Part shown: positions 5,573 through 42,316 of the stretch, in pieces | Numbering within the stretch: position 1 is the first letter of the stretch | Layout: the number at the start of each line of letters is the position of its first letter | Assembly: GCA_964390595.1 (NCBI GenBank) | Contig: CAYMIA010000004.1 | Span: 4,023 to 68,022 of the forward strand | DNA length: 64,000 bases | Source: an uncultured Gammaproteobacteria bacterium | GTDB lineage: Bacteria; Patescibacteriota; Microgenomatia; Daviesbacterales; UBA10151 | Direction: 5' to 3' | The notes under the pieces: model-generated | What the model saw: only the letters and a program-made list of their open reading frames with translations | Database searches by the model: none | Told to the model about the DNA's origin: nothing | Made by a program: the position numbers and the translations under genes

Positions 5573-5581
5573 AATTGATCT

Positions 5582-12659: not shown

Positions 12660-14334
12660 TATAATTTTGAGCGGGCTGGTTTTAATCCTTTTACTAGGTG
12701 GACTGCTTAGAGCTTATCAGATTGGTAGTAATCCACCAGGTTTAACTTGGGATGAGGCCTCCTTTGGTTATAACGCCTATTCAATTTTAAAAACAGGTAA
12801 AGATGAATACGGCAATTTTTTGCCATTACAACTTAAATCTTTTGGTGACTATAAACCAGCAGTTTATACTTACCTCTCGATTCCATTTATAGCCACCTTA
12901 GGTTTAACTGAAACCGCTGTTAGGTTGCCAAATGTTATATTGGGGACTTTAACAATATTGATGGTTTATCTTTTGGTTAACTTACTTTTTAAGAATAAGT
13001 TTCTGGCTTTGGCCTGCGCCTTGATGATGGCGATTTCGCCTTACGCGATTCAATTTTCGCGTCCAGCTTATGAGGTTAGTACAGCTTTGTTTTTTAATAT
13101 TTCAGCGGCTTATTTTTTTGTCCGGGGGTTAAAAAAACCGCAATTTTTTATATTGTCGGCTTTATTTTTTGGATTATCACTTTTTACCTATCAAGCCTCC
13201 AGGCTGTTTGTGCCATTGATAGTTTTGGCTTTAGTTATTACCAATATAAAAGAACTGAAGCTATCCAAGTTTTTGGTGGCATCTGGGGTAACGCTGGCAG
13301 TTTTTATGGCTTTGGCTGGTTTGCTGATTATACTTTTCCATCAGTCTAATCGAATTGCTGCAACCAGCTATTTTAAATATGCTGATAACAGGGCTACCAT
13401 TTCCCTGGCTAAACAAGAGAGCCCGAATGGTTATTCGAATTTAGGATTTCAGATCTTGCATGGAGATTGGTTTTACAACATTAGGGGGCTTGGGGAGCAT
13501 TATTTGATCTATTTTTCCCCATCAATTTTATTTGTTAATGGTGATTATGATCTGAGACACAAAGTTCCAGACTTGGGAGTTTTGTATTATATATCAGCAG
13601 TATTGATACCCCTTGGACTGGTTTTGGCCTTCAAAAAAAAGGAATCAAAGATTATTCTACTCTGGCTTTTGATTGCTCCACTGCCTGCAGTGCTTTCCAG
13701 GGATTTAATTAATTTTCAGCGGGCTTTTAATTTAAGTTTACCTCTATCTGTGCTGGAGGGGTTTGGGTTATATTTTCTGGTCAAGTACCTACTAACTTTA
13801 CCAAAAGTTAAATCCAGTATCCTTCTTTCTATAGTTAGTTTGGTAATTTTGGGAAATTTTTTAATCTATCTGGACCGGTATTTTGTTCATGGTCCAAAGG
13901 AACTTTCCAGAGGTTGGTTGTATGGTTACAAAGAAGTAATGTTGGGTTTAGCGCCTGAGAAGTACCAGCAAGTTATTATGACAGATTTTTATAAACAACC
14001 ATATATTTTCTATCTATTTTATAAACAGTATCCGCCTGAAAAGTTCCAAAAACAGGCAGTTTTGGATCAGCCAACTGCAGATGTAGGAGAGATTAAAAGG
14101 ATTGATAATATTGAGTTTAGACATGTTTATTTTCCTGATGATAGAAATCTGAAGAATACCTTGCTGATTGGGATAGAAGATGAGTTGCCAGATAATGATG
14201 TTAAGGGAGCGCAGGGTAGTCAGTTAATTGGTCAAATTAACTTTTTAGATCAGACACCAGCTTTTAGAATAGTGGAGAATGAATCTTCACGAGCAGGTAC
14301 TCGCAGCTTTTCTTCTGGAGAAAAAAATAGATGA
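12625..14334 (+). CDS. ArnT/PMT-family GT-C membrane glycosyltransferase (paralog 3)
   Basis: LTWDEASFGYNAYSILKTGKDEYGNFLPLQLKSFGDYKPAVYTYL. It is multi-TM. The alternative start at ATG 12643 is also possible. Confidence 0.7.
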   Translation: MVPKLLMLFRPNIILSGLVLILLLGGLLRAYQIGSNPPGLTWDEASFGYNAYSILKTGKDEYGNFLPLQLKSFGDYKPAVYTYLSIPFIATLGLTETAVRLPNVILGTLTILMVYLLVNLLFKNKFLALACALMMAISPYAIQFSRPAYEVSTALFFNISAAYFFVRGLKKPQFFILSALFFGLSLFTYQASRLFVPLIVLALVITNIKELKLSKFLVASGVTLAVFMALAGLLIILFHQSNRIAATSYFKYADNRATISLAKQESPNGYSNLGFQILHGDWFYNIRGLGEHYLIYFSPSILFVNGDYDLRHKVPDLGVLYYISAVLIPLGLVLAFKKKESKIILLWLLIAPLPAVLSRDLINFQRAFNLSLPLSVLEGFGLYFLVKYLLTLPKVKSSILLSIVSLVILGNFLIYLDRYFVHGPKELSRGWLYGYKEVMLGLAPEKYQQVIMTDFYKQPYIFYLFYKQYPPEKFQKQAVLDQPTADVGEIKRIDNIEFRHVYFPDDRNLKNTLLIGIEDELPDNDVKGAQGSQLIGQINFLDQTPAFRIVENESSRAGTRSFSSGEKNR

Positions 14335-15962
14335 AATTATTCTGGCAAAAATATTGGATCAGTTTGATATTGGTGGCCATTTTGGGGTTGGGACTTTTTT
14401 TGCGGACAGCTTGGTTAAGTAGCTTCCCAGCTGGGTTTAACGCTGATGAAGCGGCAATTGGCTACAATGCTTACTCTTTACTCCAAACAGGTAAGGATGA
14501 ATATGGAACAGCGTTTCCACTGGCCTTTAAATCATTCGGGGATTTTAAACCGGGACTTTATTTTTATTTTGTCTTACCTTTTGTGGCTATTTTTGGATTA
14601 ACTGAGTTAGCAGTGCGTTTACCCTCAGCTCTTTTTGGGGTGGGGACTATCTTTTTGATTTTTCTGCTTTCAAATGAGGTCTTTAAAGACCGGAGAATTG
14701 GACTAATCAGTGCTTTTTTGCTTTCAATTACTCCTTGGCATATTCATTTTAGTAGAGGTGGATGGGAGACTAATGTTGCCACTTTTTTTATAACTTTAGG
14801 CGTTTTTCTTTTTATAAAGGGCTTGCGGTCAAATTGGGTGATGTTTTGGAGTCTATTTTCTTTTCTGATCTCGATGTATCTTTACCAATCACCCCGGTTG
14901 GTAGTGCCAGTTTTGGTTTTAGGTTTAGGATTATTTTTTAGGAAGCAGCTTAAAGTTAACTTTAAAGCCAAAATTAAATATCTAATTGTCCTTTTGGTTT
15001 TAACGGTTCCACTAGTTTTACAATTTACCTCTGGTGGTGGAAGCTCACGCTTTTCAGGTCTGTCTTTTTTGTCTGATGCTGGGCCTAAGTCCCGGGTGGA
15101 GCAGCTGCGGGGTGAGCATGATAGCAAATTAATTGCCACTCTTTTACATAATAAAGTGACAGGTTATGGAACTAATTTTTTAGGACATTATTTGGATCAT
15201 TTTAGTTTAGATTTCTTATTTATTAATGGGGATCCATTGATCCGCAATAAAGTTCCAGAGGTTGGTCAGTTTTATCTAATTGAGGCTTTGTTTTTGGTGG
15301 TTGGATTTTGGGGGTTGGTTAAACAGAAAATTAAATTAGGGCTTTTATTAATTCTTTGGATATTGATCTCGCCGCTTGCCTCTTCACTGACTTACCAAAC
15401 GCCAAGTGCGCTTAGAGCATTAAGTATGGTTGTGCCGTTAACTATGATCATGGGGTTTGGATTGTGGAGCTTGCTAACCTCGGTTAAAAAATTACCTTGG
15501 CGGTTTTTAGCAGTTGGTTTAATTGGAGTAATTTTAATTTTTGAAACAGCCCACTACCTGGATGCTTATTTTATTCATTACCCAAAACGATACCCGCTAT
15601 CATGGGAGTATGGATTTAATCAAATGGTTGATAAGTTGCAACAATATCAGAGTCAATATAAAAGAGTGGTTATAACTGACCGTTATGATCAACCCTACAT
15701 TCTGGTTTTGTTTTATGAAAAATATGACCCTAAAAAATATCAGCCCCAAGCTAAGTTAACTGACCGGGACAAATTTAATTTTGGGACTGTCAGGAGTTTT
15801 GATAAATATGAATTTCACAGTATTACTACCAAAGAGTTTAAGGGAGCTAAGGACACACTTTTTATTGGAACAGAAAGTGAGATAGAAGACAAGGCCCGGA
15901 TATTTGATAGAATTAAATTTCCAAACGGAGAAGACGTCTTTGTATTTGCCAAGAGTGATTAA
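14331..15962 (+). CDS. ArnT/PMT-family GT-C membrane glycosyltransferase (paralog 4)
   Basis: FNADEAAIGYNAYSLLQTGKDEYGTAFPLAFKSFGDFKPGLYFY. It is multi-TM and the start overlaps the upstream stop (ATGA). Confidence 0.7.
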   Translation: MKLFWQKYWISLILVAILGLGLFLRTAWLSSFPAGFNADEAAIGYNAYSLLQTGKDEYGTAFPLAFKSFGDFKPGLYFYFVLPFVAIFGLTELAVRLPSALFGVGTIFLIFLLSNEVFKDRRIGLISAFLLSITPWHIHFSRGGWETNVATFFITLGVFLFIKGLRSNWVMFWSLFSFLISMYLYQSPRLVVPVLVLGLGLFFRKQLKVNFKAKIKYLIVLLVLTVPLVLQFTSGGGSSRFSGLSFLSDAGPKSRVEQLRGEHDSKLIATLLHNKVTGYGTNFLGHYLDHFSLDFLFINGDPLIRNKVPEVGQFYLIEALFLVVGFWGLVKQKIKLGLLLILWILISPLASSLTYQTPSALRALSMVVPLTMIMGFGLWSLLTSVKKLPWRFLAVGLIGVILIFETAHYLDAYFIHYPKRYPLSWEYGFNQMVDKLQQYQSQYKRVVITDRYDQPYILVLFYEKYDPKKYQPQAKLTDRDKFNFGTVRSFDKYEFHSITTKEFKGAKDTLFIGTESEIEDKARIFDRIKFPNGEDVFVFAKSD

Positions 15963-17928: not shown

Positions 17929-19182
17929 ATGAAAAAAAAGATTCAATTACTGCTAAATAATCAGCTGCTTGGTAACAGCGTCTTAATGATAATTGGTTTT
18001 AACGGTGGGAATGCGATCAATTATCTATACCACTTGATTATGGCTAGAATTTTAGGGCCGGCTCATTACGGAGAGTTAGCCACCTTAATAAATGTGATTG
18101 GGATTGTTAGCATGATACCAGCTTCGCTGTCTTTGGTAATTGTTAAGTTTGTATCGTCGGCTAAGTCGGCTGATCAGATTAGCGGGTTACTTAATTGGTT
18201 CGTCAAAAAAACTTATATCGCATCCGGTGTTGTTTCATTGGTTTTTTTAATTCTTAGTCCAGTTTTAGCTAAGTTTTTAAATATTGATAATGTATCACTG
18301 CTAGTGATTCTAGCTTTGACGTTTTTATTTATTTTACCAGCGCTTTTTTATCGTTCAGTTTTGCAGGGACTTTTAAAATTTAAAGAATATGTTATCTCGG
18401 TTTTATCTGAGAATACAATTAAATTAGTCTTTGGAATAGGGTTTGTTTTAGCTGGTTTTTCTGTTTTTGGAGCGATGATTGGATTTGTAGCTGCCACTTG
18501 TTTGGGGTTTTTTCTGAGCAGACACTTTATTAGGATACACCGTAGCCGGGATGTTCAGCCACCCAATTTAGGGAGTCTCTTTAGCTACTCGTTGCCAGTG
18601 CTGATTCAGTCAGTGGCGGTTACATCTTTACTATCAGTTGATGTCATTTTAGTGAAACATTTTTTTGATTCTTACCAAACCGGAATTTATGCAGCTTTTT
18701 CATCTTTAGGAAAGATTATCTTTTATGGTGCCGGACCGATCAGCGCGGTGATGTTTCCTCTGGCTTCGGCCAAAGCTGCCCGCGGCGAAAGTTCGTCAAG
18801 GGTATTTTTATATAGCGTTGGCGCAACTGCGCTACTTGTTTTTGGGGTGGTGTTGATTTATCTATTCTTTCCGAGACTCGCTATTAATATTCCTTTTGGG
18901 AGCTCATATCTGCAGTATTCACAACTGCTAGTTTATTTTGGTTTGTTTATGGGAATGTTTACAATTGGCTATTTATTTACCAACTACTTTTTATCAATCT
19001 CTAAGACTAAAGCGATTGTTTTACCAGTAATAGCTGCTCTAGTTCAGGTAGTTGGGATATTTATTTTTCATAAAAGTTTGCAGTCGGTCATATTAGTTTC
19101 ACTTTTTGCTGGGTTTTTACTGCTTGTTTCATCAGTTGGCTATTTCTTATATCTCTTGCAAACTGACAAAAAAATAGGCTAA
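17929..19182 (+). CDS. Wzx-like oligosaccharide flippase (MOP/polysaccharide biosynthesis protein family)
   Basis: About 12 TM helices at 417 aa. The N-terminal LGNSVLMIIGFNGGNAINYLYHLIMARILGPAHYGELATL matches the Polysacc_synt N-terminal signature. Confidence 0.7.
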   Translation: MKKKIQLLLNNQLLGNSVLMIIGFNGGNAINYLYHLIMARILGPAHYGELATLINVIGIVSMIPASLSLVIVKFVSSAKSADQISGLLNWFVKKTYIASGVVSLVFLILSPVLAKFLNIDNVSLLVILALTFLFILPALFYRSVLQGLLKFKEYVISVLSENTIKLVFGIGFVLAGFSVFGAMIGFVAATCLGFFLSRHFIRIHRSRDVQPPNLGSLFSYSLPVLIQSVAVTSLLSVDVILVKHFFDSYQTGIYAAFSSLGKIIFYGAGPISAVMFPLASAKAARGESSSRVFLYSVGATALLVFGVVLIYLFFPRLAINIPFGSSYLQYSQLLVYFGLFMGMFTIGYLFTNYFLSISKTKAIVLPVIAALVQVVGIFIFHKSLQSVILVSLFAGFLLLVSSVGYFLYLLQTDKKIG

Positions 19183-21040: not shown

Positions 21041-24118
<3,078 letters not shown>

Positions 24119-24150
24119 TGCTTGCCAGTATAGCAAAGCCTTCAAAGCTA

Positions 24151-24178
24151 TTGCAAAACTTTAATTGATTTGTATAAT
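24151..24178 (+). promoter_or_regulatory. candidate sigma70-like promoter in divergent intergenic region (TTGCAA-16nt-TATAAT)
   Basis: TTGCAA at 24151-24156, a 16-nt spacer, then TATAAT at 24173-24178. It sits immediately upstream of the ATG at 24189, implying a very short leader or a leaderless transcript. Confidence 0.35.
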
Positions 24179-24188
24179 CCAGTTAAGC

Positions 24189-25580
24189 ATGGACCAAGTA
24201 AAATCTTTAATAAAAAGTGAGATATCGGAGTGGAGAAAATATTACAACCAGAATATTTTTTACCACCAAGATCTGCAAAGACTGGCAATAAATTTAATTC
24301 CTCAGGACGCATCGGTAATTGAATTTGGTTGTAGGGGAGGAGAGTTACTAGGTAAACTGCCGAATAAAATAAGAGTTGGGGTTGATGATAATCGATCAAT
24401 TTTAGAGTACGCTAGAAAAAGAAATCCTAAGATAAAATTTGTTGATAGTGGACATCTTCCAAAAATAAAATTTGATTATATTCTACTCTCTCACAATTTA
24501 ATGAACGAAGATGATATTCAAGGGTTTATTAGGTCACTTAGAAAAATCAGCCAAACTGATACCAGAATTGTTGTAACTTATTTTAATTACACCTGGAAGC
24601 CTTTTTTTGATGTGGCTTCTAAATTGGGACTGATGTTTCCTTTAAGGAGTGAGCCAAATTGGTTGACTTCTTCGGATGTTAGTAATTTCTTTTACTTAGA
24701 GGGATATGAAAACATAAAAGATGGCAGGCGGTTTATCTGGCCCTATAATTTTTTAAAGATAGGGTACCTTTTCAATAAATATATCTCACCTTTGCCGATT
24801 ATTAATGCTTTTTGTCTAATTAATTATGCGGTTTACCGTTCTAGACCTATCCCCAAAGATTATTCAGTTTCAGTGATCATTCCGGCTAGAAATGAGTCAG
24901 GTAATATGAAAGGGGTTTTGGCAAAAATTCCTAAGATGGGTCGAGGAGTGGAGGTGATTTTTGTTGAAGGGCACTCCAAAGATGATACTTATGATGTTAT
25001 CAAAAAGGAAATTGCAGATTACAAAGGTCGTATGAGACTTCAATTATTTAAACAAAAAGGGGTTGGTAAGGGGGATGCGGTTAGACTTGGGTTTACAAAA
25101 GCCAAAAATGATATTCTGATGATTTTGGATGCTGACTTAACTGTAGCTCCAAAAGATTTGCCAAAGTTTTATAAGATTGCTGCCTCTGGTAGAGGGGATT
25201 TTGTAATGGGTTCCAGACTGGTTTATCCAATGGAAAAACTGGCGATGAGAACCTTGAATATCTTGGGTAATAAGTTTTTTAGCTTAGCATTTTCATTTCT
25301 TTTGGGGCAAAAAATTAAGGATACATTGGCTGGAACAAAGGTTTTGACCAAGGAGAATTATAGAAAGATTGAAAAAAATAGAAAGTTTTTTGGAGATTTT
25401 GATCCTTTTGGAGATTTTGACTTAATATTTGGTGCTGCCAAGTTAAATCTAAAAATTGTTGAGATACCAATTAGATATAAACAGAGAACTTATGGAACTA
25501 CTAATATTAGCCGGTTCAGACATGGTGTGCTCCTCTTGAGGATGGTATTGTTTGCTGCCTTGAAGATTAAATTTATTTAA
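24189..25580 (+). CDS. fusion protein: N-terminal SAM-dependent methyltransferase-like domain + C-terminal DPM1/GtrB-like GT2 domain
   Basis: The start is taken at ATG 24189 (MDQVKSL...). The N-terminal half carries VIEFGCRGGELLG, a class I MTase motif I-like segment. The C-terminal half carries SVSVIIPARNESGNM, MILDADLTV and the AGTKVLTKENYRKI segment shared with DPM1-like enzymes. Confidence 0.65.
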   Translation: MDQVKSLIKSEISEWRKYYNQNIFYHQDLQRLAINLIPQDASVIEFGCRGGELLGKLPNKIRVGVDDNRSILEYARKRNPKIKFVDSGHLPKIKFDYILLSHNLMNEDDIQGFIRSLRKISQTDTRIVVTYFNYTWKPFFDVASKLGLMFPLRSEPNWLTSSDVSNFFYLEGYENIKDGRRFIWPYNFLKIGYLFNKYISPLPIINAFCLINYAVYRSRPIPKDYSVSVIIPARNESGNMKGVLAKIPKMGRGVEVIFVEGHSKDDTYDVIKKEIADYKGRMRLQLFKQKGVGKGDAVRLGFTKAKNDILMILDADLTVAPKDLPKFYKIAASGRGDFVMGSRLVYPMEKLAMRTLNILGNKFFSLAFSFLLGQKIKDTLAGTKVLTKENYRKIEKNRKFFGDFDPFGDFDLIFGAAKLNLKIVEIPIRYKQRTYGTTNISRFRHGVLLLRMVLFAALKIKFI

Positions 25581-26475
25581 GTTTTTTTGGTTTGTAGCCC
25601 ATTGAGGTGGTGTGAATGCCGAAGATCCTAATTGGATCAAAACCATCAAGCAAGGTAGCTAAAGCGATAAACGGTTTAATCATTAAATTATTCCAAATTG
25701 TTAAAATAGTTTTTGAGCCAAATTTCCAGTTGATAAATAGGTCACCATAGCGGATTAGATGAGGAAACATTAGCATGCCGGTTGTTTTAACTTTTTCAAA
25801 ACCCACATTTTTAAGCCAGCCCCGCTGCTCCCAAGGGAAATATGATGGTTCATAACTGGTAATATCTTTAAAGACCCGGTTGGTGGCCTCGTTGACAAGA
25901 TAGGATCCCCACAGATCTAGTTTGTTGTTGATGCCAGTTATAAAAAATCCACCTGGTTTTAAAACTCTAAAAGCTTCAGCGCATGACTTCTCATTTTCTC
26001 TGATGTGCTCAATCGTTCCAAAGCTAAAAACCACATCAAAACTGTTACTTTTAAAAGGTAATTTTCTGATATCACCTACTTTGAAATGACCGGTGTTAAT
26101 AATTTTAGTGAAATTTTTCTTGGCTAGTCTGACTACTTCTTTGGAGATATCAACTCCGTAAAGATCGTAGCCCTGTTTGAGTAACCAATGAGAGATTTCC
26201 GCAGTACCAGTGGCTTCATTGTAGAGATCGTATTTTAAAAGTTTAGCCCCTTTTTTTCTAGGTAGAAATTGTTTTAGTTGACGGGTAATTCCTTGAATAA
26301 AATATTCATCTGTGAGTGTTTTTCCAACTAATTCTTTATGGGGACTATTTTTTACCACACTGTCCCAGCGTTCTCCAAGATTTTTATTAACCTTTTCCCA
26401 ATTCTGATAAAAATCTTTTTTGTCATAAGTTTTTAACTTGGAATTTTTACTAAAATTAAATGTTCGGTCGCTCAT
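25573..26475 (-). CDS. class I SAM-dependent methyltransferase
   Basis: The likely ATG start is at 26475 (MSDRTF...); the ORF track extends it to a TTG at 26493. It carries DLYGVDISKEVV, FDVVFSFGTIEHI and LKPGGFFITG (motifs I, II and post-I). Confidence 0.65.
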   Translation of the reverse strand: MSDRTFNFSKNSKLKTYDKKDFYQNWEKVNKNLGERWDSVVKNSPHKELVGKTLTDEYFIQGITRQLKQFLPRKKGAKLLKYDLYNEATGTAEISHWLLKQGYDLYGVDISKEVVRLAKKNFTKIINTGHFKVGDIRKLPFKSNSFDVVFSFGTIEHIRENEKSCAEAFRVLKPGGFFITGINNKLDLWGSYLVNEATNRVFKDITSYEPSYFPWEQRGWLKNVGFEKVKTTGMLMFPHLIRYGDLFINWKFGSKTILTIWNNLMIKPFIALATLLDGFDPIRIFGIHTTSMGYKPKKLK

Positions 26476-26499: not shown

Positions 26500-27483
26500 T
26501 TATCGTTTCGCAAGTGTTTTTTGAATACCTTGCTGGTAATCGACTTTGGGATTGTAGCCTAATTCTTTTTTGGCTTTATTGATATTATAGTGCCAGTTAT
26601 CAGCAACTGTGATTACCTTTTGGACTGTCAAGGGTGGTTCATTCCTGAAAATTTGTGGAGAGATTTGATAACCTAATTTATAGAGAGTTTCAAAAACAAA
26701 GGCTGCACTTTGCAGCGGGAATTTGGGAATAGTTTTAGACTTTGAAAAGATCTTTAGATTTTTCTTAACTAAATTTACTAGATCAATTAATTTAATTGGT
26801 TTGCTTGACGCGATGAGATATGTTTGGTTTTGTCCGCCTTTTTTAATTGCTTTGATGTAGGCTTCCGTTAGGTCATCGATATAGACTAAATGTAGCAGAT
26901 TATTACCGCTACCGATTATTGGAAATTTGTTTTTTTTGATTAACTCCACCATTTTAGTAACCATGCCGAGTTCAGTATCGTTTGGACCGTAGACAATAGC
27001 GGGACGGATTACAGTGTAGGGGATGCCGTATTTTAAGCAAACTTCTTGCAAGTTATTTTCAGCGATTATTTTGCTTTTTCCGTAAATATCTTTAGCGAGC
27101 AGTGGACTGTTTTCATCGGTTGGGTGATCTTTCAGCCGGCCATAAACATAGACTGAGCTAGTGTCGATAATATGTTTAAGTTGGCTGTTTGGAGTGATCA
27201 ATTTCTTTAAAACATGAGCGTTAACTTCTAAAAAATTACTGGGGATGTTCCAATTGGCGCGGATAGCGGCTAAGTGGATAAAAACATCATTGCTATTTAG
27301 TTCTTTTGTAAAAGTCTCTGGTTTGAGCAGATCTCCAATGACTGTTTTGACGCCCTGTTTTTTAAGTAGTTCAGCCTTTGATTTATCTCGGGCTAAAGCG
27401 GTGATCTGATACTTTTCTTTTTTTAGTTTCTTAATCAGTTCTCGACCGATGAAACCGGTTGCACCTGTAATAAATATCTTCAT
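26500..27483 (-). CDS. NAD-dependent epimerase/dehydratase (extended SDR, UDP-sugar 4-epimerase-like)
   Basis: MKIFITGATGFIGREL and the catalytic YGKSK. About 327 aa. Confidence 0.75.
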   Translation of the reverse strand: MKIFITGATGFIGRELIKKLKKEKYQITALARDKSKAELLKKQGVKTVIGDLLKPETFTKELNSNDVFIHLAAIRANWNIPSNFLEVNAHVLKKLITPNSQLKHIIDTSSVYVYGRLKDHPTDENSPLLAKDIYGKSKIIAENNLQEVCLKYGIPYTVIRPAIVYGPNDTELGMVTKMVELIKKNKFPIIGSGNNLLHLVYIDDLTEAYIKAIKKGGQNQTYLIASSKPIKLIDLVNLVKKNLKIFSKSKTIPKFPLQSAAFVFETLYKLGYQISPQIFRNEPPLTVQKVITVADNWHYNINKAKKELGYNPKVDYQQGIQKTLAKR

Positions 27484-29234
27484 AGTCCTTTCAATTTAAT
27501 GCGCGTTTGATCGGTTGTGTCAACGAGCTCATTTTGATCGTTAATCCGGTAGCTGTAAATATTTTCAATTGGAACAGGTTTAACCGGATTATTAAATCTG
27601 GCGATAGATTGACCGTTTTGATAAGCGGAAACGATTTCTAGCCAATTATCAGTATAGACTAAGGTGGGGTCAAATTTAAGATGTTGTTCAATAGCGACAA
27701 AGGCGGGGAAACCAAAGAGGATATTTTGATAAAGAATTTTGTAATCGCTACCTTCGAAGTAAAAAACTAGTGGCGAGTTGTGGGTTTTAAGTTGGGAGAT
27801 TTTAGGGAATGAACGATGAATTTTAGTGGCTATTGCGGTGTCGCGATTGTAACGAAGATCCATTAAATAATTAAACGAGGCAATTCCCTGAATTAGTATG
27901 AGGGCGCAGATAACTGAGCTTAGAATAAGTTGTTTTTTTCTAGTTTCACCTAAACTAACTGTTGTTCCGAAAAGTATTGCGATAGCTACAGCTGTAACGA
28001 TCAGATAGCGCTGAGTGGTAATTTGAACGGTCAAAGGAAACCTCATCCAAGCTAGCAAAAAAGAGCAAAAGAGCCAACTAAAGGAGGTAAAAAGGGCAAT
28101 TCCAGCTTTTTCATTTCGATAATAAAAAATAACCTCAAGTAGCATAATAAGAGTGAAGCCGCCGATTAATGACCAATGTACTCCGGCGACATTTTGATAA
28201 GAACCGAGACCTAAAGTGGCAAGTAGGATTTTAACAGCTATGATCCAAATAAATGTCAAAAAGGCGGTGAGAATTAGAAATTTGTTATCTAGTTTGGAGA
28301 CGCATTTTTTAAGGAGCCAGCTGATGAGTAATGCAACCACCCAGATTTTGAGAATATTCAGATCTGAATATTCTGGGTGGACTAACTCAAGAGCGTGGGG
28401 AATCATTGAATCGGGTAATAGAACTGACCCAATTTGAATGATAGGATTGATAATAATCTGATATTGCCCACTAGAGATTAATTTGGAAGGAGTAGCTGTG
28501 CCTCCATTTAGGGTATTTCCCCATGTGCTGTTAATTCTTTCAAAAAGATTGTGGCCATTTCCGATGCTGTTGCCAATGGATAGAATTAAAATAAAAGTTA
28601 AGGAGATACCAATCAGCTGAAAGAGACTCCAGCGGATGTCGGTAAATTTATGATGGAAGATCAGCCAAAAAATTTCGATTAACACTAAAAAAATCGGTAG
28701 GCCGGTCATCCGGATCGGTTGGGTGACTATGGTTAAGAAAAAAAGTAAGAATGACAGAAATAGAAATTTAGTGCTCGTTAACTCTTTAGATTTAAAATAG
28801 GTAGTTATAAAAAGATTCAAGAAAAAAATTGAAATATAACTGGCCATATTAAAAGCCCAATTACTAGTTTCTAAACCAGCAGTTGTTAAAGCAAAAAAAA
28901 GCATCGAGATAAAAATTGCTAGTTTGTTTTTAGTGAAATAATTTAGGAGAGGATAGAAAGAAAAAACTGCCAAGGTGCGCAGAACAAAAGAGAGTAGATA
29001 AAAGTAGACCGATTTTAGTCCAATTGACTGATAGAGGATACCAACAATGGTGTCAGCCATGCCATAGGGGGAGAGTAGAAATTTCCAACTAATTAGATGA
29101 GCACCTGGATCTTGAGCTAGTGCAAAAAGATAATCATTAATTGCTAAATAATCATCTCCGGATAGCCCAATATGAAAAGTTGGCCGGAGAATTAGCAGAT
29201 GAGCTATTAAAATGACAAAAAATATGATTACCAT
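27480..29234 (-). CDS. polytopic membrane protein, putative GT-C-type glycosyltransferase / YfhO-like
   Basis: At 584 aa with more than 12 predicted TM helices. It has an N-terminal GDDY acidic motif in its first loop and a C-terminal non-membrane domain. Confidence 0.5.
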   Translation of the reverse strand: MVIIFFVILIAHLLILRPTFHIGLSGDDYLAINDYLFALAQDPGAHLISWKFLLSPYGMADTIVGILYQSIGLKSVYFYLLSFVLRTLAVFSFYPLLNYFTKNKLAIFISMLFFALTTAGLETSNWAFNMASYISIFFLNLFITTYFKSKELTSTKFLFLSFLLFFLTIVTQPIRMTGLPIFLVLIEIFWLIFHHKFTDIRWSLFQLIGISLTFILILSIGNSIGNGHNLFERINSTWGNTLNGGTATPSKLISSGQYQIIINPIIQIGSVLLPDSMIPHALELVHPEYSDLNILKIWVVALLISWLLKKCVSKLDNKFLILTAFLTFIWIIAVKILLATLGLGSYQNVAGVHWSLIGGFTLIMLLEVIFYYRNEKAGIALFTSFSWLFCSFLLAWMRFPLTVQITTQRYLIVTAVAIAILFGTTVSLGETRKKQLILSSVICALILIQGIASFNYLMDLRYNRDTAIATKIHRSFPKISQLKTHNSPLVFYFEGSDYKILYQNILFGFPAFVAIEQHLKFDPTLVYTDNWLEIVSAYQNGQSIARFNNPVKPVPIENIYSYRINDQNELVDTTDQTRIKLKGL

Positions 29235-30108: not shown

Positions 30109-31247
30109 AGGTTTTGCAGCTGACAGTCCATTTTTCTCCTAATGTTGGTGGTGTTGAAACTCACTTGTCTGATCTGGTAGCGGGTTTAATTAAGAGAAAT
30201 TTTAAAGTCTTTGTTTTGGCCTACCGCCCATTGATGATTAAGGCCCCTTGGCAGGTGTTGGAAAAATCCAAGAATTTAACTATCTTGAGATTGCCCTGGT
30301 TGCCTGGTTTTTTTTACAAGTTAGTTGGTCAGCCGGCTTTGGAATTTCTCTATCTAACACCTGGGCTTTTTTTGGTTGCGCCTTTTGTTTTAATCAAAGA
30401 GCGGCCTAATGTGATTCACGCCCACGGGTTAATCGCCGGATTTGTAGGAGTTTTTTGGGGAAAGATCTTTGGTATTAGAACAGTTGTATCAACGCATTCG
30501 ATTTATGATTTCCCTAAATCAGGAATGTACTACCTGCTAGCTAAATTTATTTTTGGTAACGCAAGTAAGACAATTTGTTTATCGAACCAATCAGTTAAGG
30601 AAATTCAGCGGCTAGGAGTAAGTGATGAAAAGATAGGTAGGTTTACCTACTGGATAGATCTGGATATTTTTTCTAGAGTGGTTAAGGCCAGAGATAGCTT
30701 GGGGTGGAAAGATGGTTTTATTGTTTTTTTTGTTGGCCGGTTGGTTGAAATCAAAGGTGTCCGGGAGTTATTGGAGGCTAGTAAATTGTTTAATAAATCA
30801 ATAAAGTTGGTCATTGCTGGAGATGGACCACTTAGAGATGAAGTTCAGTCTTTTGCAAATTCCTCTTCTGGTCGGGTGTTGTTTTTAAACCGAATTGATA
30901 ATACGAAGCTACCAACATACTATAGTGGAGCTGATGTTTTAATCGTTCCTTCGACTCATGAAGAAGGTTTTGGGAGGGTGATTTTGGAGGCATTAGCTTG
31001 TGGCACGCCTGTGATTGGGTCTAGAAGAGGAGCGATACCCGAGGCGATGGATGAAAGTGTAGGTAGATTGATTGATGTGACGCCAGAAAATATTGCTCAA
31101 GTCATCAATGAATTGCCAAAAAAACCGAAGCTGATTAAGTCTTGGGGTACTCAGGCGAGAAAATTGGCTGTGAGCAGATTTAGTGAAAAAAATATCGATG
31201 AAATTATTAACAGCTATATAGTGTCAAATGACAGTTCGACTGAATAA
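30105..31247 (+). CDS. family 4 glycosyltransferase
   Basis: VPSTHEEGFGRVILEALACGTPVIGSRRGAIPEAM is the EX7E region. Confidence 0.75.
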   Translation: MKVLQLTVHFSPNVGGVETHLSDLVAGLIKRNFKVFVLAYRPLMIKAPWQVLEKSKNLTILRLPWLPGFFYKLVGQPALEFLYLTPGLFLVAPFVLIKERPNVIHAHGLIAGFVGVFWGKIFGIRTVVSTHSIYDFPKSGMYYLLAKFIFGNASKTICLSNQSVKEIQRLGVSDEKIGRFTYWIDLDIFSRVVKARDSLGWKDGFIVFFVGRLVEIKGVRELLEASKLFNKSIKLVIAGDGPLRDEVQSFANSSSGRVLFLNRIDNTKLPTYYSGADVLIVPSTHEEGFGRVILEALACGTPVIGSRRGAIPEAMDESVGRLIDVTPENIAQVINELPKKPKLIKSWGTQARKLAVSRFSEKNIDEIINSYIVSNDSSTE

Positions 31248-33229
31248 CTGCCTGGTTGCTTAACATACCAAGCATTAGCATAACCATTAACCCGGAAGTG
31301 TGGTGAAATTGGTTGATTGTCAACTTTTGCTTGCCAAGATTGATTGAAGCTCGTTGATAAAATAATAAAGAAGGGTGTCGTAGCATTATTAATGGACATA
31401 AGGTAATGTTCAGCATTTAACTTTTGAATTGCAAAGTGGGGGTTATTTAATAATTGACCGATACTACTGGGAAAATTTGAATCTTCGGTAAAGGCTTCTT
31501 TTGTAGGATTTAGCTGGCCGTTAATAATTAGATCTAAACCAGCTTTGGTTGAGGTAACCGGAAAAATTTTATTTGCCGTGTAACCCCAGTAAACAGGTTG
31601 AGTGTAGCGAAACAGCGATAAGGTATTAGATTGATAAGCTGGAGAGATGTCTCGCCATTTATTAATGATGTTTCGGGAATCTTGATAACTTTCAAAATAG
31701 CCAGCTTGACTGGAAATATCTTGATGGAGGATTACTTGGTTGATAGCAAAGAGAGGAAAAAGTTTGGAGAAATTAGGATTTTGAATGTATTGATAAAGTA
31801 AAGGATAAGGATCGCCTGGATTGTAATAAGTTCTCGAGAGAGCCGGTCTGACAAAAAAAAGTTCTGATTGTTCTTCACCTCTATAGCCCCAGGAGTAAGT
31901 TAGACTTGAGGTTAGCAAAAAAGGCATACTTAGAAGCCGCAAACTGTCCGATTTTTTTAAAATGTCATTAACTTGGTCATAAGAATTGGGGACTTGGTTA
32001 GCGTAGCCATCAAGTAATTCCCCATTCCACATTGGGAAAACTACGAATCCACAGATACTAATTAAACAAATAATTGAAAAAAATTTATTGTGGTTAGTGA
32101 TTTTAGCTAAACCTAGGCTCAAAAATAATGAATATGGTAGTAAAAAAACTAATCCAAATTTTTCATAAGGATTACGAAGAACCTGAGTTAGTTGGAAGTG
32201 ACTAAATAAAAACCCAAAAAACTCATTACCAAAAGGTGGGTTGGCTCCCTTGCTGACAAACCAGCCAACAGCTAGGATGCTGGCAAAAAGTTTGCCTGCG
32301 CTTCTCCTAACAGAGAAAATCAGACCAGCTAACATTATTCCGGTGATCAGCAAGAGTTCGTAGTTTTGATGAAGAAAGAAAGACCAATTTGGGTTGAGTG
32401 TAAAGTAATAATTTTGCTTTAGAAAAAGGACTGATAAATTGGGGAAAAAACGAGTGACCTCCTGAAGGGCGTTGAGATTTTTGTTTGGATCAAGTAACTG
32501 CGAATAATAATTATCTTTGACCAAGAGAAGCGGTCTGATCCACCAGATGTTGCTTAGCAGCCAAATGATTAATGTAGTTGCTCCAAGCAGACTAGTCTTG
32601 AGCCAGTTGGGCCGACCGATAATTATGAAATAAAGGCAAATAGCAGCTGCTGGAAGCCATAAAACAAATGATGCGGAGACAAAGCTGTACATTAGAGAAT
32701 AGATAAATGAACTTAAAGTTAAGGCCGCGAGGTAGCGAATCTTTCTGGATTTTAGAAATAGAGTAAATAAGAGTAAAAAAAGAGGTAAATATGACCATAA
32801 AAAAATTTGAGGAAATAAAAAACGGTACCAAACTTGAGACTCGGTATATAAATTAAAGGTGTAAAAAAAGGCGGCAATTTGAGCTTCGAATTGTTGTTTA
32901 GGCAGGAAAAGTTTAATTAGTAGGGGCATTGAAATTAATGGAACTAATATCAGAGCGAAAAAAATAACTTGCTGGATTAAGACCGGAGGAATATTTAAAT
33001 AACTGAGGGAGGAGATAAATAAGTAGAAGGGAATCCTTGGGACTGCTAGTGGATTGGCTAAACCGAGACCGCTATCTGTCCAAATGGTACTATATAACTG
33101 ATAGGTATGTATGGGCCGGTAAAAAATTGGTCCTTCCTCATTGGCCATTAAGGTAAGTCCTTTTCTAAACCAAACTAAACTTAAGAAAGCCGCGATAATT
33201 AAACATAAAAAGAGATACTTTTTCATCAA
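31214..33229 (-). CDS. large polytopic membrane protein, YfhO/AftD(DUF3367)-like putative glycosyltransferase
   Basis: At 671 aa. Its N-terminal membrane region is paralogous to the 44939 gene (..W.....GLG..N....). The C-terminal soluble domain ends in PHFRVNGYANAWYV, matching the GYANGW motif of the 39053 gene. Confidence 0.55.
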   Translation of the reverse strand: MMKKYLFLCLIIAAFLSLVWFRKGLTLMANEEGPIFYRPIHTYQLYSTIWTDSGLGLANPLAVPRIPFYLFISSLSYLNIPPVLIQQVIFFALILVPLISMPLLIKLFLPKQQFEAQIAAFFYTFNLYTESQVWYRFLFPQIFLWSYLPLFLLLFTLFLKSRKIRYLAALTLSSFIYSLMYSFVSASFVLWLPAAAICLYFIIIGRPNWLKTSLLGATTLIIWLLSNIWWIRPLLLVKDNYYSQLLDPNKNLNALQEVTRFFPNLSVLFLKQNYYFTLNPNWSFFLHQNYELLLITGIMLAGLIFSVRRSAGKLFASILAVGWFVSKGANPPFGNEFFGFLFSHFQLTQVLRNPYEKFGLVFLLPYSLFLSLGLAKITNHNKFFSIICLISICGFVVFPMWNGELLDGYANQVPNSYDQVNDILKKSDSLRLLSMPFLLTSSLTYSWGYRGEEQSELFFVRPALSRTYYNPGDPYPLLYQYIQNPNFSKLFPLFAINQVILHQDISSQAGYFESYQDSRNIINKWRDISPAYQSNTLSLFRYTQPVYWGYTANKIFPVTSTKAGLDLIINGQLNPTKEAFTEDSNFPSSIGQLLNNPHFAIQKLNAEHYLMSINNATTPFFIILSTSFNQSWQAKVDNQPISPHFRVNGYANAWYVKQPGSYSVELSFDTI

Positions 33230-35542: not shown

Positions 35543-36373
35543 ATGGCAGGTATTTTGGAAAAATTAAATCTCTTGCTAGCCAATACTGGCGATATGGCGC
35601 TAAAAAGAAGGGCGAAAGATTTAGTTTTGGCTCTAGAATTAACAGATGGGGATAAAGTTCTGGATATGGGTTGTGGAGATGGGTATTATGCTTATTTAAT
35701 GTCTAATTTAGGGTTAAAATTAAATATTACAGCTTCTGATTTTGATCCGGTTGGGCTTTTGAACGCCAAGAAAAATTTAAAGAGTTCAATTAAAGTTATT
35801 CAGTCTGATTTGATGCAAAAAACACCTTTTAAAAATTCCGAGTTTGATAAAATAGTTATGTCGGAGGTTGCAGAGCATTTACCAGATGATTTAAAGGGGT
35901 TAAAGGAGGTCTACAGAATTTTAAAACCAGATGGAATTTTGGCTTTAAGCGTACCGGATCACAACTATCCAATTTTATGGGACCCGGTCAATTGGATTTT
36001 GGAGCGAACTTTGGGGATACATGTTAAGAGTGGTTTTTTTGCAGGCATTTGGAATCAACATATTAGGCTTTATAAAAGGTCTCAGATAGTAAATGTTGTT
36101 GAAAGGGCTGGTTTTAAAGTGGAGGAAGCTAAAGCGATTACCTTATGGAGCTTGCCCTTTAATCATTATTTAGTGAATCTAGTTGCCAGGGCTTTACATG
36201 GAGGAGCTTTGTCAAAAGAAGCTGCCAGTGCGCTTAATAAATATGAGAAGTCTCCCAAGCGGCCAGGGGTAATCAATTTAGCTTTTGGTTTGGTAAATTT
36301 AGTCGATAAATTGAATGACTTATGTAGTTCTAAGGAAATTGGGGTATCTATATTTGTGAAGGCAAGAAAATGA
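35543..36373 (+). CDS. class I SAM-dependent methyltransferase
   Basis: VLDMGCGDGYYA (motif I), FDKIVMSEVAEHL and LKPDGILALSVP. Confidence 0.7.
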   Translation: MAGILEKLNLLLANTGDMALKRRAKDLVLALELTDGDKVLDMGCGDGYYAYLMSNLGLKLNITASDFDPVGLLNAKKNLKSSIKVIQSDLMQKTPFKNSEFDKIVMSEVAEHLPDDLKGLKEVYRILKPDGILALSVPDHNYPILWDPVNWILERTLGIHVKSGFFAGIWNQHIRLYKRSQIVNVVERAGFKVEEAKAITLWSLPFNHYLVNLVARALHGGALSKEAASALNKYEKSPKRPGVINLAFGLVNLVDKLNDLCSSKEIGVSIFVKARK

Positions 36374-38971: not shown

Positions 38972-39052
38972 AAGTTACTTTCTATTGATAATCTGAGGTC
39001 AATTATATATTGTATGTATGAATTAGCCGGGAGTCTCGGGCTTTTAGGTAAT

Positions 39053-42000: not shown

Positions 42001-42316
42001 GCTTGATCCATATTTGAAAGAGTGGGAGGTAACAAGCAGTGATGGAAAGCAGCCAATATTACAAGGTGATCATTTTAAACCGTTTGGATATGCTAATGGT
42101 TGGCATTTGAATTTAGAGGAGTTGATAAAAAAGCTACCGGCTAACTCATATAGCCGGAATCCGGATGGGACGCTTTCTCTAAACTTGCTTTTGCAATTTA
42201 AATTAATGGGTTTCCATTACTTGTTTTTATATATCTCTATTGCTACTTTTGGGCTCGCGGTTATGTATTTGGTAAAGATTTATTTAATAGATAATTGGAG
42301 AAAAAGTCATGTCTAA
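39053..42316 (+). CDS. very large polytopic membrane protein, YfhO/AftD-like putative glycosyltransferase with N-terminal extracytoplasmic domain
   Basis: The start is taken at ATG 39053 (MKKILFILFVSLVVVI, signal/TM). An extracytoplasmic domain of about 170 aa follows, then more than 12 TM helices and a C-terminal soluble domain of about 330 aa carrying the HFKPFGYANGWHLN motif. Confidence 0.55.
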   Translation: MKKILFILFVSLVVVISWRLIAYVQQDISKNGFYTIVSNEYRNGFFAHGGVVAWQGDKLIGQFSAHDDNLGIIQIPTKYLPLSLAGQTVFKLKSLSQNDWSFQGTYENKGILIYDSYPFGLPLITDSKKRTYQFEITSTNIDSTKNPDFSSNHLFTEKYVFPHQSTKQYPLILIKKISSAFSDESFWRWDCLLVPTLLFAFLLLGIFTKTIRDNLIKPFVLELLPSLFKKRPVLILISAVVLFFFYLSNLNSNLFFLLFLFTWSTLILCFKLKPDFSFKAAITVLLLIPVFIFLGHDKLSEEIAVFVWAFFIIGVGHYLVDYYFSKQAKIRSLERAWVELSKKQKFLIGAAVVLGIFGISIFFKSYYLGGDDTKFYYLYPDLFYQNFVSKIGPDTSVSSLLSLLPPTSIAPFILPLVAIKFIFRAANLQFVLYSLNIFFGVFFFYKFIDYLIPRSDIFSKWAKFLGALLYCFSIFNFYSYFNSQLLVMYLLSTFPLSMLLFIKAVREQKIHLVVICALISTIFGFLSVYIPWLSALFIVSLPLYLLFFLEHKKRFLAYSGLLIGLLILLNCHWFVYLTFSSVLNQSFGYTDPSITTDAFRKLNEQGIKIASSINSPIYPLLNSYHYDIQKNFNWPFLAIYESWYKNLLWINIFFIGIILWAVFLNSKEKGSNWPFVTTVSSLLIGVYFFTVNIGGWGQPLFIWLNNTIPGFVMFRNMYDKFAPAMAWSFALAFSASLISIILRIHSKQTKQILLGFSLFLIALNAKPFLLNEFNNVPIWTTKATYNTISGLNQDYLNLLEFVRSQDTSARYLELPLSYGNISQIQDQSLSNHYYNGLAPLLILTGKNDYSGAMSFGSFGQELIDDIQEHRYQEFGLLLRQFNVKYVIVNKSLNDELINSYIFGGLYQKQNDEFKRVILGQKIKDFGSRYSMYEINPEFAVDKIYLAADFKQLPTVNELQFKKLSSTKYQINIPSIHQDSDLVLLDPYLKEWEVTSSDGKQPILQGDHFKPFGYANGWHLNLEELIKKLPANSYSRNPDGTLSLNLLLQFKLMGFHYLFLYISIATFGLAVMYLVKIYLIDNWRKSHV

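Follow-up and report, generated by a model that had tools for sequence, protein, structure and literature searches.

Polyprenyl-phosphate glycosyltransferases (PGTs), such as DPM1/PfDPMS, GtrB, ArnC and AglJ, combine a GT-A fold and its DXD motif with hydrophobic or amphipathic C-terminal helices, and their genes are linked to those of GT-C enzymes. C-terminal transmembrane (TM) helices are not universal among PGTs: human DPM1 has none. In three-component systems (GtrA/GtrB/GtrC-type; ArnC/ArnT), a cytoplasmic GT2 charges polyprenyl phosphate with the sugar that a GT-C enzyme then transfers on the outer side of the membrane; in pentofuranose systems, epimerase or SDR genes accompany the module (PMC11127046).

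Methyltransferase domains that are fused to, or work with, glycan-assembly modules are known from chain terminators of the WsaE/WbdD type, which act on lipid-PP-linked polymers and operate in ABC-transporter pathways (PMC2943079, PMC11127046). WsaE, from the S-layer glycan system of Geobacillus stearothermophilus, unites an N-terminal methyltransferase domain with GT domains and forms a 2-O-methyl cap (PMC2943079). WbdD of E. coli O8/O9a contains no GT; its modules are a kinase and a coiled-coil.

Here we analyze a gene in which a methyltransferase-fold domain is joined to a PGT-like GT2, together with the 64,000-nucleotide stretch of DNA in which it lies (the window). Our search of the literature returned nothing relevant on a characterized methyltransferase::PGT fusion, and no biochemical data on any member of the fusion family, whose proteins RefSeq names merely "glycosyltransferase". 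The architecture itself is not unusual: at least 586 loci occur in species-representative genomes from more than 10 phyla, and the family spans hundreds of species.

Results

A single gene for a two-domain protein

The fusion gene and the elements within it are as follows:

24189..25580, plus strand: methyltransferase-fold::GT2 fusion gene, a single intact ORF of 463 aa
24189..24854, plus strand: N-terminal class I methyltransferase-fold domain (residues 1-222), with a non-canonical cofactor site
24327..24341, plus strand: motif I, GCRGG (residues 47-51), with Arg49 in place of the central Gly of GxGxG
24855..25580, plus strand: GT2 (GT-A) domain of the DPM1/GtrB/ArnC/AglJ type (residues 223-463; PF00535)
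25128..25136, plus strand: DXD motif, D314-A315-D316, aligned with the DAD of PfDPMS
25512..25577, plus strand: C-terminal hydrophobic helix, RFRHGVLLLRMVLFAALKIKFI (residues 442-463; AF2 helix at 442-461)

The reading frame is open from a TTG codon (24165..25580, plus strand), and translation from the ATG at 24189 yields 463 residues, for which NCBI holds a 100%-identical protein of the same length. The protein has some 120 co-linear homologues, 441-484 aa long, whose alignments span 95-100% of its length, and hundreds of homologues from independent assemblies are full-length and co-linear. Because of the identical NCBI protein and these co-linear homologues, the fusion can be taken as one gene with no frameshift joint, as the original prediction of a single ORF uniting a SAM methyltransferase-like domain with a DPM1/GtrB-like GT2 had assumed. 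The AF2 model (pLDDT 89.6, pTM 0.89) contains two confident domains and no flexible linker, and in it the N-terminal domain appears rigidly packed on the GT domain.

The GT2 domain

By both sequence and structure, the GT2 domain is closest to the PGTs. PF00535 matches residues 228-383 (E = 7.7e-21), and the best NCBIfam profile is that of AglJ (TIGR04182, E = 3.7e-32), with the dolichyl-phosphate hexose transferase also matched; these two profiles align over the entire domain, to residue 450. Scores lie far under the equivalog cut-offs (111.9 vs. 325 for AglJ, 57.5 vs. 375 for the Dol-P-hexose transferase and 38.6 vs. 529 for ArnC, itself among the best sequence matches), so that the enzyme is related to AglJ and ArnC without being their ortholog. 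The top PDB matches by phmmer are 5mlz (PfDPMS, E = 5e-11) and ArnC; for the GT2 domain, matches were obtained to ArnC (9bhc, E = 3.7e-13), PfDPMS (5mlz, 1.1e-12) and GtrB (9nyc, 3e-10). In Foldseek, ranks 1-11 for the fusion are all ArnC or DPMS, and GtrB is also among the best structural matches.

Both D314 and D316 are invariant across the fusion family. Beyond the catalytic core, the family conserves an IxEIPIxYxxRxYGxTNIS region that aligns with the EIPVHHAEREFGDS of ArnC (the shared pattern being E-I-P-x-x-Y-x-x-R-x-Y-G), and both the R-x-(Y/F)-G motif region and the hydrophobic helix at the C-terminus are conserved. That helix, with a mean Kyte-Doolittle value of 1.66 over the last 19 residues, is the sole strongly hydrophobic segment of the protein and is a probable membrane-interface or tail anchor. 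Unlike GtrB and ArnC (two TM helices) and PfDPMS (four), the fusion lacks a multi-helix TM anchor in its GT domain, and unlike all of the PGTs named above, it bears an extra N-terminal domain of 222 aa.

The N-terminal domain and its cofactor site

The N-terminal domain is modeled as a seven-stranded, Rossmann-like class I methyltransferase fold, with a pLDDT above 90 across most of residues 11-140. Foldseek matched it to 2gs9 and 1vlm (both at TM 0.75) and to 3l8d (E = 1e-10), and phmmer recovered 2gs9 at E = 3e-5. The methyltransferase fold that had been predicted is therefore present. All Pfam methyltransferase matches nevertheless fall below the gathering cut-off, the best being PF13489 at 25.3 bits vs. 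27 (residues 27-141), whereas canonical relatives of the fusion match 6-11 Pfam methyltransferase families each.

Motif I reads E-F-G-C-R-G-G in context and so departs from the expected E/D-x-G-x-G-x-G. Arg49 aligns with the central Gly of GxGxG in four solved methyltransferases (2gs9, 3cgg, 1vlm and 3i9f), and the window copy keeps G47, G51, E45 and D66, the last being the acidic residue that ends β2 and contacts the ribose. R49 is the sole hard defect in the SAM site of the window copy. Some active methyltransferase families accept a side chain at the central-Gly position (the FkbM type, for example, reads G-A-N-x-G), and since the four other residues are kept, the window copy may still bind SAM. 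As to the source of the domain, we considered local duplication of another methyltransferase of the window and rejected it, as BLAST comparison of the domain with these proteins gave no match at E up to 1.

A subclade with a remodeled site

Canonical SAM motifs (LEIGCGTGDLL, GVGIDFS) are found in nearly all relatives of the fusion. In about 80 relatives belonging to other phyla, motif I is still Gly-rich, of the form G-x-(G/A/S)-x-G and mostly GxGxG, and the β2 aspartate is kept; in a first canonical set of 22 sequences all three motif I glycines (G1, G2 and G3) and D66 are invariant. Cultivable carriers of the canonical form include Leptolyngbya (WP_323353453.1), Thermophagus and Prosthecobacter. 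Judging from these sequences, the ancestor of the N-terminal domain was probably an active SAM methyltransferase, its canonical form persisting in most of the family, and the canonical majority is very probably bifunctional, acting as both methyltransferase and glycosyltransferase.

In a tree of GT domains, the window copy falls in a pure Microgenomates-type subclade of 97 tips, in which K/R forms and deletion forms lie together. The central glycine (G2) is replaced by Arg in 40 and by Lys in 39 of 85 subclade sequences, as against Gly in 22/22 canonical ones; G1 is Gly in just 55/85, and the acid ending β2 is D/E in just 59/85, compared with Asp in 22/22. Nested within the subclade are about 10 members from whose N-terminal domains strands β1-β3 have been deleted. 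Of 35 positions of this domain that are conserved in canonical members, eight are lost in the subclade, with 12, 48, 49, 66 and 68 lying within or beside the SAM motifs and 168 and 216 elsewhere; positions retained include W136, N157, W158, D163, N166, P185, N196 and P203, and the C-terminal half of the domain is conserved in both clades. The GT domain has lost merely 5 of 115 conserved positions.

Because the central glycine has become Arg or Lys, the SAM-contact positions are relaxed, and β1-β3 are deleted in some members, all while the rest of the domain is conserved, the N-terminal domain of the window copy is most likely non-catalytic, and we infer that SAM binding has most likely been lost. 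That a basic residue is conserved in 79/85 sequences suggests that the site has acquired another role rather than simply decayed.

The neighborhood

The genes around the fusion, and others of the window that bear on its role, are:

23117..24145, minus strand: extended SDR, 342 aa, divergent from the fusion (PF01370/PF07993); syntenic partner
25573..26475, minus strand: stand-alone class I methyltransferase, 300 aa, convergent with the fusion (PF08241, E = 9e-23)
26500..27483, minus strand: SDR epimerase/dehydratase-like protein, 327 aa (PF01370, E = 3e-38)
27480..29234, minus strand: polytopic membrane protein of GT-C fold, 584 aa, about 12 TM helices, no Pfam match
35543-36373: methyltransferase (PF13489, 6e-21)
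43846-44775: methyltransferase (PF13489, 7e-23) with a Cys4 element, C6-x2-C9 ... C36-x2-C39
50781-51623: FkbM methyltransferase (PF05050, 1e-13)
17929-19182: Wzx-like MOP protein
47681-48955: Wzx-like MOP protein

The four stand-alone methyltransferases all score above their Pfam thresholds, and so the original description of a methyltransferase-rich glycan neighborhood, down to the Cys4 element of one enzyme, is borne out. The nearest of them overlaps the 3' end of the fusion by 8 nt at its own 3' end, and a stand-alone methyltransferase is the commonest +1 neighbor of the fusion across the family. The window also encodes a weak Wzy_C-like protein, a Bac_transf initiator, 13 GT2 and 10 GT4 enzymes, and at least six GT-C enzymes of the PMT_2/PTPS type. 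The 53 ORFs that reach 120 aa in length were scanned with Pfam, and among these 53 there was no match to an ABC transporter (ABC_tran, Wzt_C) or to a GtrA-type flippase (PF04138). As for which sugar is involved, NCBIfam searches with the neighboring SDRs returned generic sub-threshold matches alone, that for the SDR at 26500..27483 being an HpnA-like sugar epimerase.

Synteny with a second locus, L003, embraces the SDR, the fusion and the 584-aa protein (587 aa in L003). The SDR at 23117..24145 is 53% identical to the SDR in the same position there, and the ortholog of the 584-aa protein (30% identity, E = 6e-65) directly adjoins the fusion, whereas two genes stand between them in the window. 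Sequence searches of the PDB with the 584-aa protein gave no match, even at E = 10; its AF2 model (pLDDT 83) has GT-C structures as all of its top 16 Foldseek matches (STT3, ArnT, DPY19, PglB), and a GDD at residues 26-28 is invariant or nearly so. On a broader scale, a polytopic protein (at least 400 aa, 6 TM) lies within two genes of the fusion on either side in 52/85 loci; the frequency is 0.21-0.23 at positions -2, -1, +2 and +3 and 0.14 at +1, and falls to 0.05-0.11 at ±5-7.

Discussion

We favor, with about even confidence, the view that the fusion is a lipid-sugar (polyprenyl-phosphate) synthase with a remodeled, non-methylating N-terminal domain, which provides the donor for its GT-C-fold neighbor. 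The protein would be a peripheral or monotopic membrane PGT, whose GT-A domain would use a nucleotide sugar at the cytoplasmic face to form a polyprenyl-monophosphate sugar; this lipid-linked sugar would be flipped and would then serve as donor for the protein encoded at 27480-29234, which we propose to be its user, with other GT-C paralogues of the island as possible further users. On the outer side of the membrane, the GT-C proteins would use it to decorate a glycan or a protein, by the logic of three-component systems. The context (SDR, GT-C protein, Wzx/Wzy-type genes and no ABC transporter among the ORFs scanned) fits a donor pathway of this style, not a WsaE/WbdD-type one, and the presence of SDR genes recalls the pentofuranose systems. 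The window differs from described three-component systems in that no GtrA-type flippase was found among its 53 scanned ORFs, the GT-C partner belongs to a Pfam-less family, and the donor synthase bears a methyltransferase-fold domain.

Because the methyl-donor site is remodeled in the subclade, the fusion probably just loads sugar onto a lipid carrier and performs no methyl capping, and methylation of the glycan should be the job of the stand-alone methyltransferases of the locus. The proposal that the fusion generates a methylated lipid-linked donor survives in part: a lipid-linked donor agrees with the nearness of the GT2 to PGTs and with the GT-C neighbor, but its methylation does not agree with the remodeled cofactor site. 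The N-terminal domain may instead have been retained for a structural or regulatory role in the transferase, against which it packs rigidly. METTL14 (with METTL3) and DNMT3L are inactive methyltransferase-fold partners that have a degenerate cofactor site and a structural or allosteric role, and the N-terminal domain resembles them in keeping the fold, with a degenerate cofactor site, beside an active enzyme. Unlike these proteins, which belong to pairs of RNA or DNA methyltransferase paralogues, the presumably inactive domain has a glycosyltransferase as its partner, and in the same polypeptide. The subclade offers a natural experiment in which the cofactor site of one scaffold has been either remodeled or deleted, and a very common, unnamed family receives a testable role, that of a PGT with a methyltransferase module acting together with GT-C enzymes.

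A rather unlikely alternative is that the window copy is itself bifunctional, the N-terminal domain binding SAM in a non-canonical manner and O-methylating either the nucleotide sugar or the polyprenyl-phosphate sugar to give a methylated lipid-linked donor. The methyltransferase fold is complete, confidently modeled and rigidly packed on the GT domain; G47, G51, E45 and D66 persist; the canonical majority very probably has both activities; and the C-terminal half conserved in both clades is the usual substrate-binding part of class I methyltransferases. Against this stand the basic residue in place of the central glycine in nearly all clade members, the relaxation of G1 and of the β2 acid, the nested members that have dispensed with β1-β3, and the sub-threshold Pfam matches. 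Arg49, the pure subclade that it marks, and the relaxed or deleted SAM-contact positions there also tell against the idea that sugar transfer is coupled to methyl capping.

We regard as doubtful a related scheme in which the family makes O-methylated polyprenyl-phosphate sugars for GT-C enzymes outside the membrane, the dead pocket of the Microgenomates forms, with its conserved Arg/Lys, having been put to use in sensing a ligand or in regulating donor synthesis through the binding of phosphate or lipid. If true, methylated lipid-linked donors would constitute a route of glycan methylation for which we found no description in the literature; and if canonical members methylate the lipid-linked sugar, this would be a new way of building methylated surface glycans.

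It is similarly improbable that the fusion works as an ordinary cytoplasmic GT2, extending an Und-PP-linked repeat unit by one sugar, with the methyltransferase-like domain as a scaffold and the adjacency of GT-C genes a product of crowding in the island. With 13 GT2 and 10 GT4 genes in the window, adjacency alone is weak evidence; the fusion protein lacks TM helices, and the GT-A enzymes WrtF (6e-9) and GpgS (8e-9), which are not PGTs, are just 3-4 orders of magnitude behind the PGTs in Foldseek. However, the AglJ and Dol-P-hexose transferase profiles span the whole domain, the R-x-(Y/F)-G region and terminal hydrophobic helix are conserved, and the company of polytopic proteins is enriched across phyla, with the GT-C-fold synteny kept.

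A WsaE/WbdD-type chain terminator, which would add a terminal sugar to a lipid-PP-linked polymer and a methyl cap recognized by an exporter, is very unlikely. WsaE likewise has its methyltransferase domain at the N-terminus, ahead of GT domains, and 12/85 loci of canonical relatives encode, at a distance of 4-7 genes, a Wzt ATPase that includes a Wzt_C carbohydrate-binding domain. But in the window, where this analogy had first been drawn, the scanned ORFs include no ABC transporter and instead encode two Wzx-like flippases, the weak Wzy_C-like protein and Bac_transf; the GT domain is nearest to transferases that load a single sugar onto polyprenyl phosphate, and the SAM motif is degenerate. 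Moreover, the AF2 model has no long coiled-coil, and WbdD appears neither among the 8 PDB sequence matches (E up to 0.01) nor among the best 50 of 865 Foldseek matches; a relationship to WbdD or WsaE was rejected for want of WbdD matches and of an ABC transporter in the window. Finally, a chance ORF, or two genes merged by a sequencing frameshift, can be set aside for all practical purposes, given the intact ORF, the hundreds of co-linear full-length homologues from independent assemblies and the confident, linker-free AF2 model.

The present analysis also identified the Pfam-less GT-C family of 27480-29234, which has 24 detectable homologues. A 576-aa protein by the Parcubacteria homologue of the fusion (locus L001) was considered as an ortholog of the 584-aa protein and rejected, as BLAST gave no match between the two; with its weak PMT_2 match, it represents a distinct GT-C-like family.

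Integrity and fold of the fusion protein

The gene at 24189-25580(+) encodes 463 aa from an ATG at 24189 (in the ORF listing of the window, a TTG start extends the frame to 24165..25580(+)), and a 100%-identical protein is present at NCBI on a 77-kb contig. Its 120 best homologues are 441-484 aa long, are 50-63% identical to it, and align over 95-100% of its length, which excludes a hidden frameshift: the original prediction of a methyltransferase-like domain and a GT2 domain in one ORF is borne out, and two separate genes are not indicated. Although Pfam methyltransferase families match the N-terminus only below threshold (PF13489 scores 25.3 bits where 27 is required; also PF13847 and PF13649), the predicted SAM-methyltransferase fold is recovered from the modelled structure. 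An AlphaFold2 model from a 60-sequence alignment is confident (pLDDT 89.6, pTM 0.89), and in it a seven-stranded α/β domain (residues ~1-218) leads directly into the first strand of the GT-A domain (residues 227-233), without a flexible linker. In Foldseek comparisons with the PDB, the N-terminal half matched class I SAM methyltransferases (2gs9 and 1vlm, TM 0.75; also 3l8d), and the C-terminal half matched ArnC (9bhc, E=3.7e-13), Pyrococcus DPMS (5mlz, 1.1e-12) and GtrB (9nyc and 5ekp).

Pfam places GT2 (PF00535) at residues 228-383 (E=7.7e-21). The best NCBIfam match of this domain is AglJ (TIGR04182, E=3.7e-32, aligned over residues 227-452), followed by the haloarchaeal dolichyl-phosphate hexose transferase and ArnC, all well under their equivalog cut-offs; the top PDB sequence match is PfDPMS. 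Both aspartates of the DXD motif (D314-A-D316) are invariant in the family, and a conserved tail, FGDFDPFGDFD...IVEIPIRYKxRTYGxTNISRFRHG, aligns with the E-I-P-V...R-E-F-G-D-S region of ArnC. The sole strongly hydrophobic segment is the C-terminal end, RFRHGVLLLRMVLFAALKIKFI; since there are no further TM helices, the protein resembles the TM-poor end of the spectrum of polyprenyl-phosphate glycosyltransferases (PGTs) more than it does GtrB or ArnC.

Fusions of this kind are not rare. With one genome taken per GTDB species, full-length relatives occur at no fewer than 586 loci at 45-51% identity, in Verrucomicrobiota, Bacteroidota, Chloroflexota (Anaerolineales), Cyanobacteria (Leptolyngbya), Omnitrophota, Desulfobacterota/"Deltaproteobacteria", Planctomycetota, Acidobacteriota, Elusimicrobiota, CPR and others, and the N-domain alone has 1164 matches at E<=1e-3 (511 at E<=1e-10) among 1.84 billion cluster representatives. 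RefSeq labels members from cultured organisms merely "glycosyltransferase", and our literature search found no paper describing a characterised member. The fusion is thus real, well folded, and part of a large uncharacterised family, whose significance lies in its size and in the natural series of cofactor-site losses that it contains.

An altered cofactor site in one lineage

The SAM motifs of about 80 relatives from other phyla are canonical. Motif I, mostly LEIGCGTGDLL, conforms to G-x-(G/A/S)-x-G in every case, the β2 acid falls within GVGIDFS, and β3 is followed by a DA.. motif. In the first set of canonical members (n=22), all three glycines and D66 were invariant. The window protein reads VIEFGCRGGELL across these motifs, and phmmer alignments to 2gs9, 3cgg, 1vlm and 3i9f place its Arg49 on the central Gly of GxGxG; G47, G51, E45 and D66 are still present. 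The change is a feature of the lineage: a non-canonical loop occurs in 85 of the 120 best homologues. In these, R (40) or K (39) mostly occupies the central position, with another residue in 6; the first Gly position has G (55), S (19) or E/D/N (11), and the β2 position has E (43), D (16) or a non-acidic residue (26).

In some ten further homologues of 405-413 aa, the β1-β3 segment is deleted, and these derive from independent sources (NCBI, ENA, JGI and Logan assemblies). These proteins (P0083-P0086, P0088, P0091, P0093, P0099, P0102 and P0111) retain the N-terminal helices, the C-terminal half of the methyltransferase-fold domain and the GT2 domain. In a neighbour-joining tree of the GT2 domain only, without bootstrap support, the deletion forms and those with a basic central residue (K/R-type) make up a pure 97-tip clade that contains no canonical member.

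The loss is specific to the cofactor site. In canonical members, 35 N-domain positions reach 85% conservation or more. Eight of these are lost in the K/R-type clade, among them 12, 48, 49, 66 and 68, which lie in or beside the SAM motifs, and 168 and 216, which lie elsewhere; in addition, position 47 is weakened. W136, N157, W158, D163, N166, P185, N196 and P203 are retained at 0.97 or above, and just 5 of 115 conserved positions are lost from the GT domain. Over motifs I-III, mean pairwise identity is lower in the K/R-type clade (0.39) than in canonical members (0.48), and for the GT domain it is equal (0.70 vs. 0.71).

On our reading of this pattern, an ancestral change from Gly to Lys/Arg disabled or altered SAM binding, after which the remaining cofactor contacts would have drifted and, in some lineages, been deleted; the rest of the N-domain would have been retained since it is integral to the transferase. 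This reading has its caveats: the window protein keeps G47, G51, E45 and D66, and conservation of the basic residue itself may point to a new role. A further caveat is that certain active methyltransferase families accept a side chain here, as in the FkbM-type G-A-N-x-G. When 143 diverse members of the N-domain family are compared, the central residue is G in 99, S/A in 19, K/R in 13 and E/D in 7, so non-small residues recur there.

Gene context and function

The window is a 64-kb glycan island with 13 GT2 and 10 GT4 genes, two Wzx-like MOP proteins, a weak Wzy_C-like protein, a Bac_transf initiating transferase, acetyltransferases and SDRs; at least six GT-C genes recognisable by Pfam stand in a row at 3890-15962.

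Genes flanking the fusion
23117-24145, - strand: SDR, divergent from the fusion
25573-26475, - strand: methyltransferase (strong PF08241 match), convergent with the fusion, 3' ends overlapping by 8 nt
26500-27483, - strand: SDR
27480-29234, - strand: 584-aa, ~12-TM protein with no Pfam or PDB sequence match; predicted GT-C fold

In a related Microgenomates-type genome (GCA_040959955.1, locus L003), an SDR 53% identical to the one at 23117-24145 is followed by the fusion and, immediately after it, by a protein orthologous to the 584-aa one (30% identity, E=6e-65). The window's 584-aa protein has just 24 detectable homologues among 5.8 billion clusters, with GDD conserved at residues 26-28. The 16 top Foldseek matches of its AF2 model (pLDDT 83, pTM 0.85) are exclusively GT-C (STT3/OST, ArnT 5f15, DPY19 and PglB; TM 0.34-0.42), and on this model it looks like an undescribed GT-C family confined to relatives of the source organism.

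Across the family, a polytopic protein (at least 400 aa and 6 TM) lies within two genes of the fusion in 52 of 85 loci, its frequency being 0.21-0.23 at -2, -1, +2 and +3, 0.14 at +1 and 0.05-0.11 at ±5-7; any Pfam matches are to PMT or PMT_2. At +1, the neighbour seen most often is a class I methyltransferase encoded on its own, which clustered families alone place at 35% of loci. The gene context bears the signature of a GT2 that charges polyprenyl phosphate on behalf of an extracytoplasmic GT-C, in line with the GT2-donor/GT-C logic of "three-component" glycosylation (reviewed in PMC11127046). A Pfam scan of window ORFs of at least 120 aa found no GtrA-type flippase.

Two functions had been proposed for the fusion. 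The first, chain-terminating methyl capping, was modelled on WbdD and on WsaE, whose N-terminal methyltransferase domain makes a 2-O-methyl cap that its partner, a Wzm/Wzt exporter, is predicted to recognise (PMC2943079). It is unlikely here, because the same scan found no ABC transporter in the window, the GT domain resembles those of PGTs and the SAM motif is degenerate. Elsewhere, in 12 of 85 loci, a canonical fusion has at a distance of 4-7 genes a Wzt-type ABC ATPase that bears a Wzt_C carbohydrate-binding domain. This hints that in those lineages the family operates alongside ABC-dependent export with cap recognition, and makes such a link possible there. Loci of this kind include Anaerolineales (L032, gene 3064-4356; L045) and Opitutaceae (L017).

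The second proposal, a methylated lipid-linked sugar donor, fares better in its lipid-linked half; methylation is plausible for canonical members, which may make methylated lipid-linked sugars and would gain added significance thereby, and is doubtful for the window's copy. The fusion is best read as a PGT whose N-terminal module has a methyltransferase fold and is probably non-catalytic in the K/R-type lineage, a composite reading that we consider about evenly balanced between right and wrong.

Other features of the window and related loci

The four other methyltransferases proposed for the window all exceed Pfam thresholds. That at 25573-26475 reads ...KYDLYNEATGTAE... where GxGxG is expected, and looks like a second non-canonical motif I at the fusion locus. 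That at 43846-44775(+) has the anticipated N-terminal CxxC...CxxC element (C6, C9, C36, C39), and its motif I, DVGCGND, has Asp at the third Gly position.

The 3890-15962(+) array comprises seven consecutive polytopic membrane proteins (423-862 aa, 8-10 TM each), six matching PMT_2, PMT or PTPS_related; such tandem GT-C paralogues suggest many distinct extracytoplasmic glycosyl transfers. One of 862 aa (6805-9393(+)) joins an N-terminal GT2 (PF00535, E=6e-23) to a ~10-TM GT-C-like domain with weak PTPS_related/PMT_2 matches, and may combine lipid-sugar synthase and GT-C user in one polypeptide. Large polytopic proteins with no Pfam match lie at 39014-42316 (1100 aa, ~18 TM), 44939-47668 (909 aa), 31214-33229 (671 aa), 42309-43859 (516 aa) and 51627-52769 (380 aa). 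The 671-aa protein is related (E=4e-38) to an 1132-aa protein of locus L004, whose positional counterpart in L005 matches PF11847 (GT-C_AftD).

Just upstream of the fusion, the loci of three close relatives of the window protein, L004 (4050-5813), L005 (3236-5005) and L006 (c18 cluster), carry a NodU/CmcH-type carbamoyltransferase (PF02543/PF16861), of which no homologue was detectable in the window, and an AftD-like giant GT-C. The closest relative in the genome collection, L006 (CAYSZS010000006.1), is 61% identical and has the K/R-type motif EIEPRGGELL. Its record carries the label 'uncultured Gammaproteobacteria bacterium', whereas every other K/R-type member with a source name belongs to Microgenomates or Patescibacteria; the contig looks mis-binned or mislabelled.

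No tRNA genes were found across the 64 kb. GC skew is positive in all 2-kb bins of window 1-64000, the cumulative skew climbing monotonically, and once nested antisense ORFs are set aside, the + strand carries 46 of the 53 ORFs that reach 120 aa or more.
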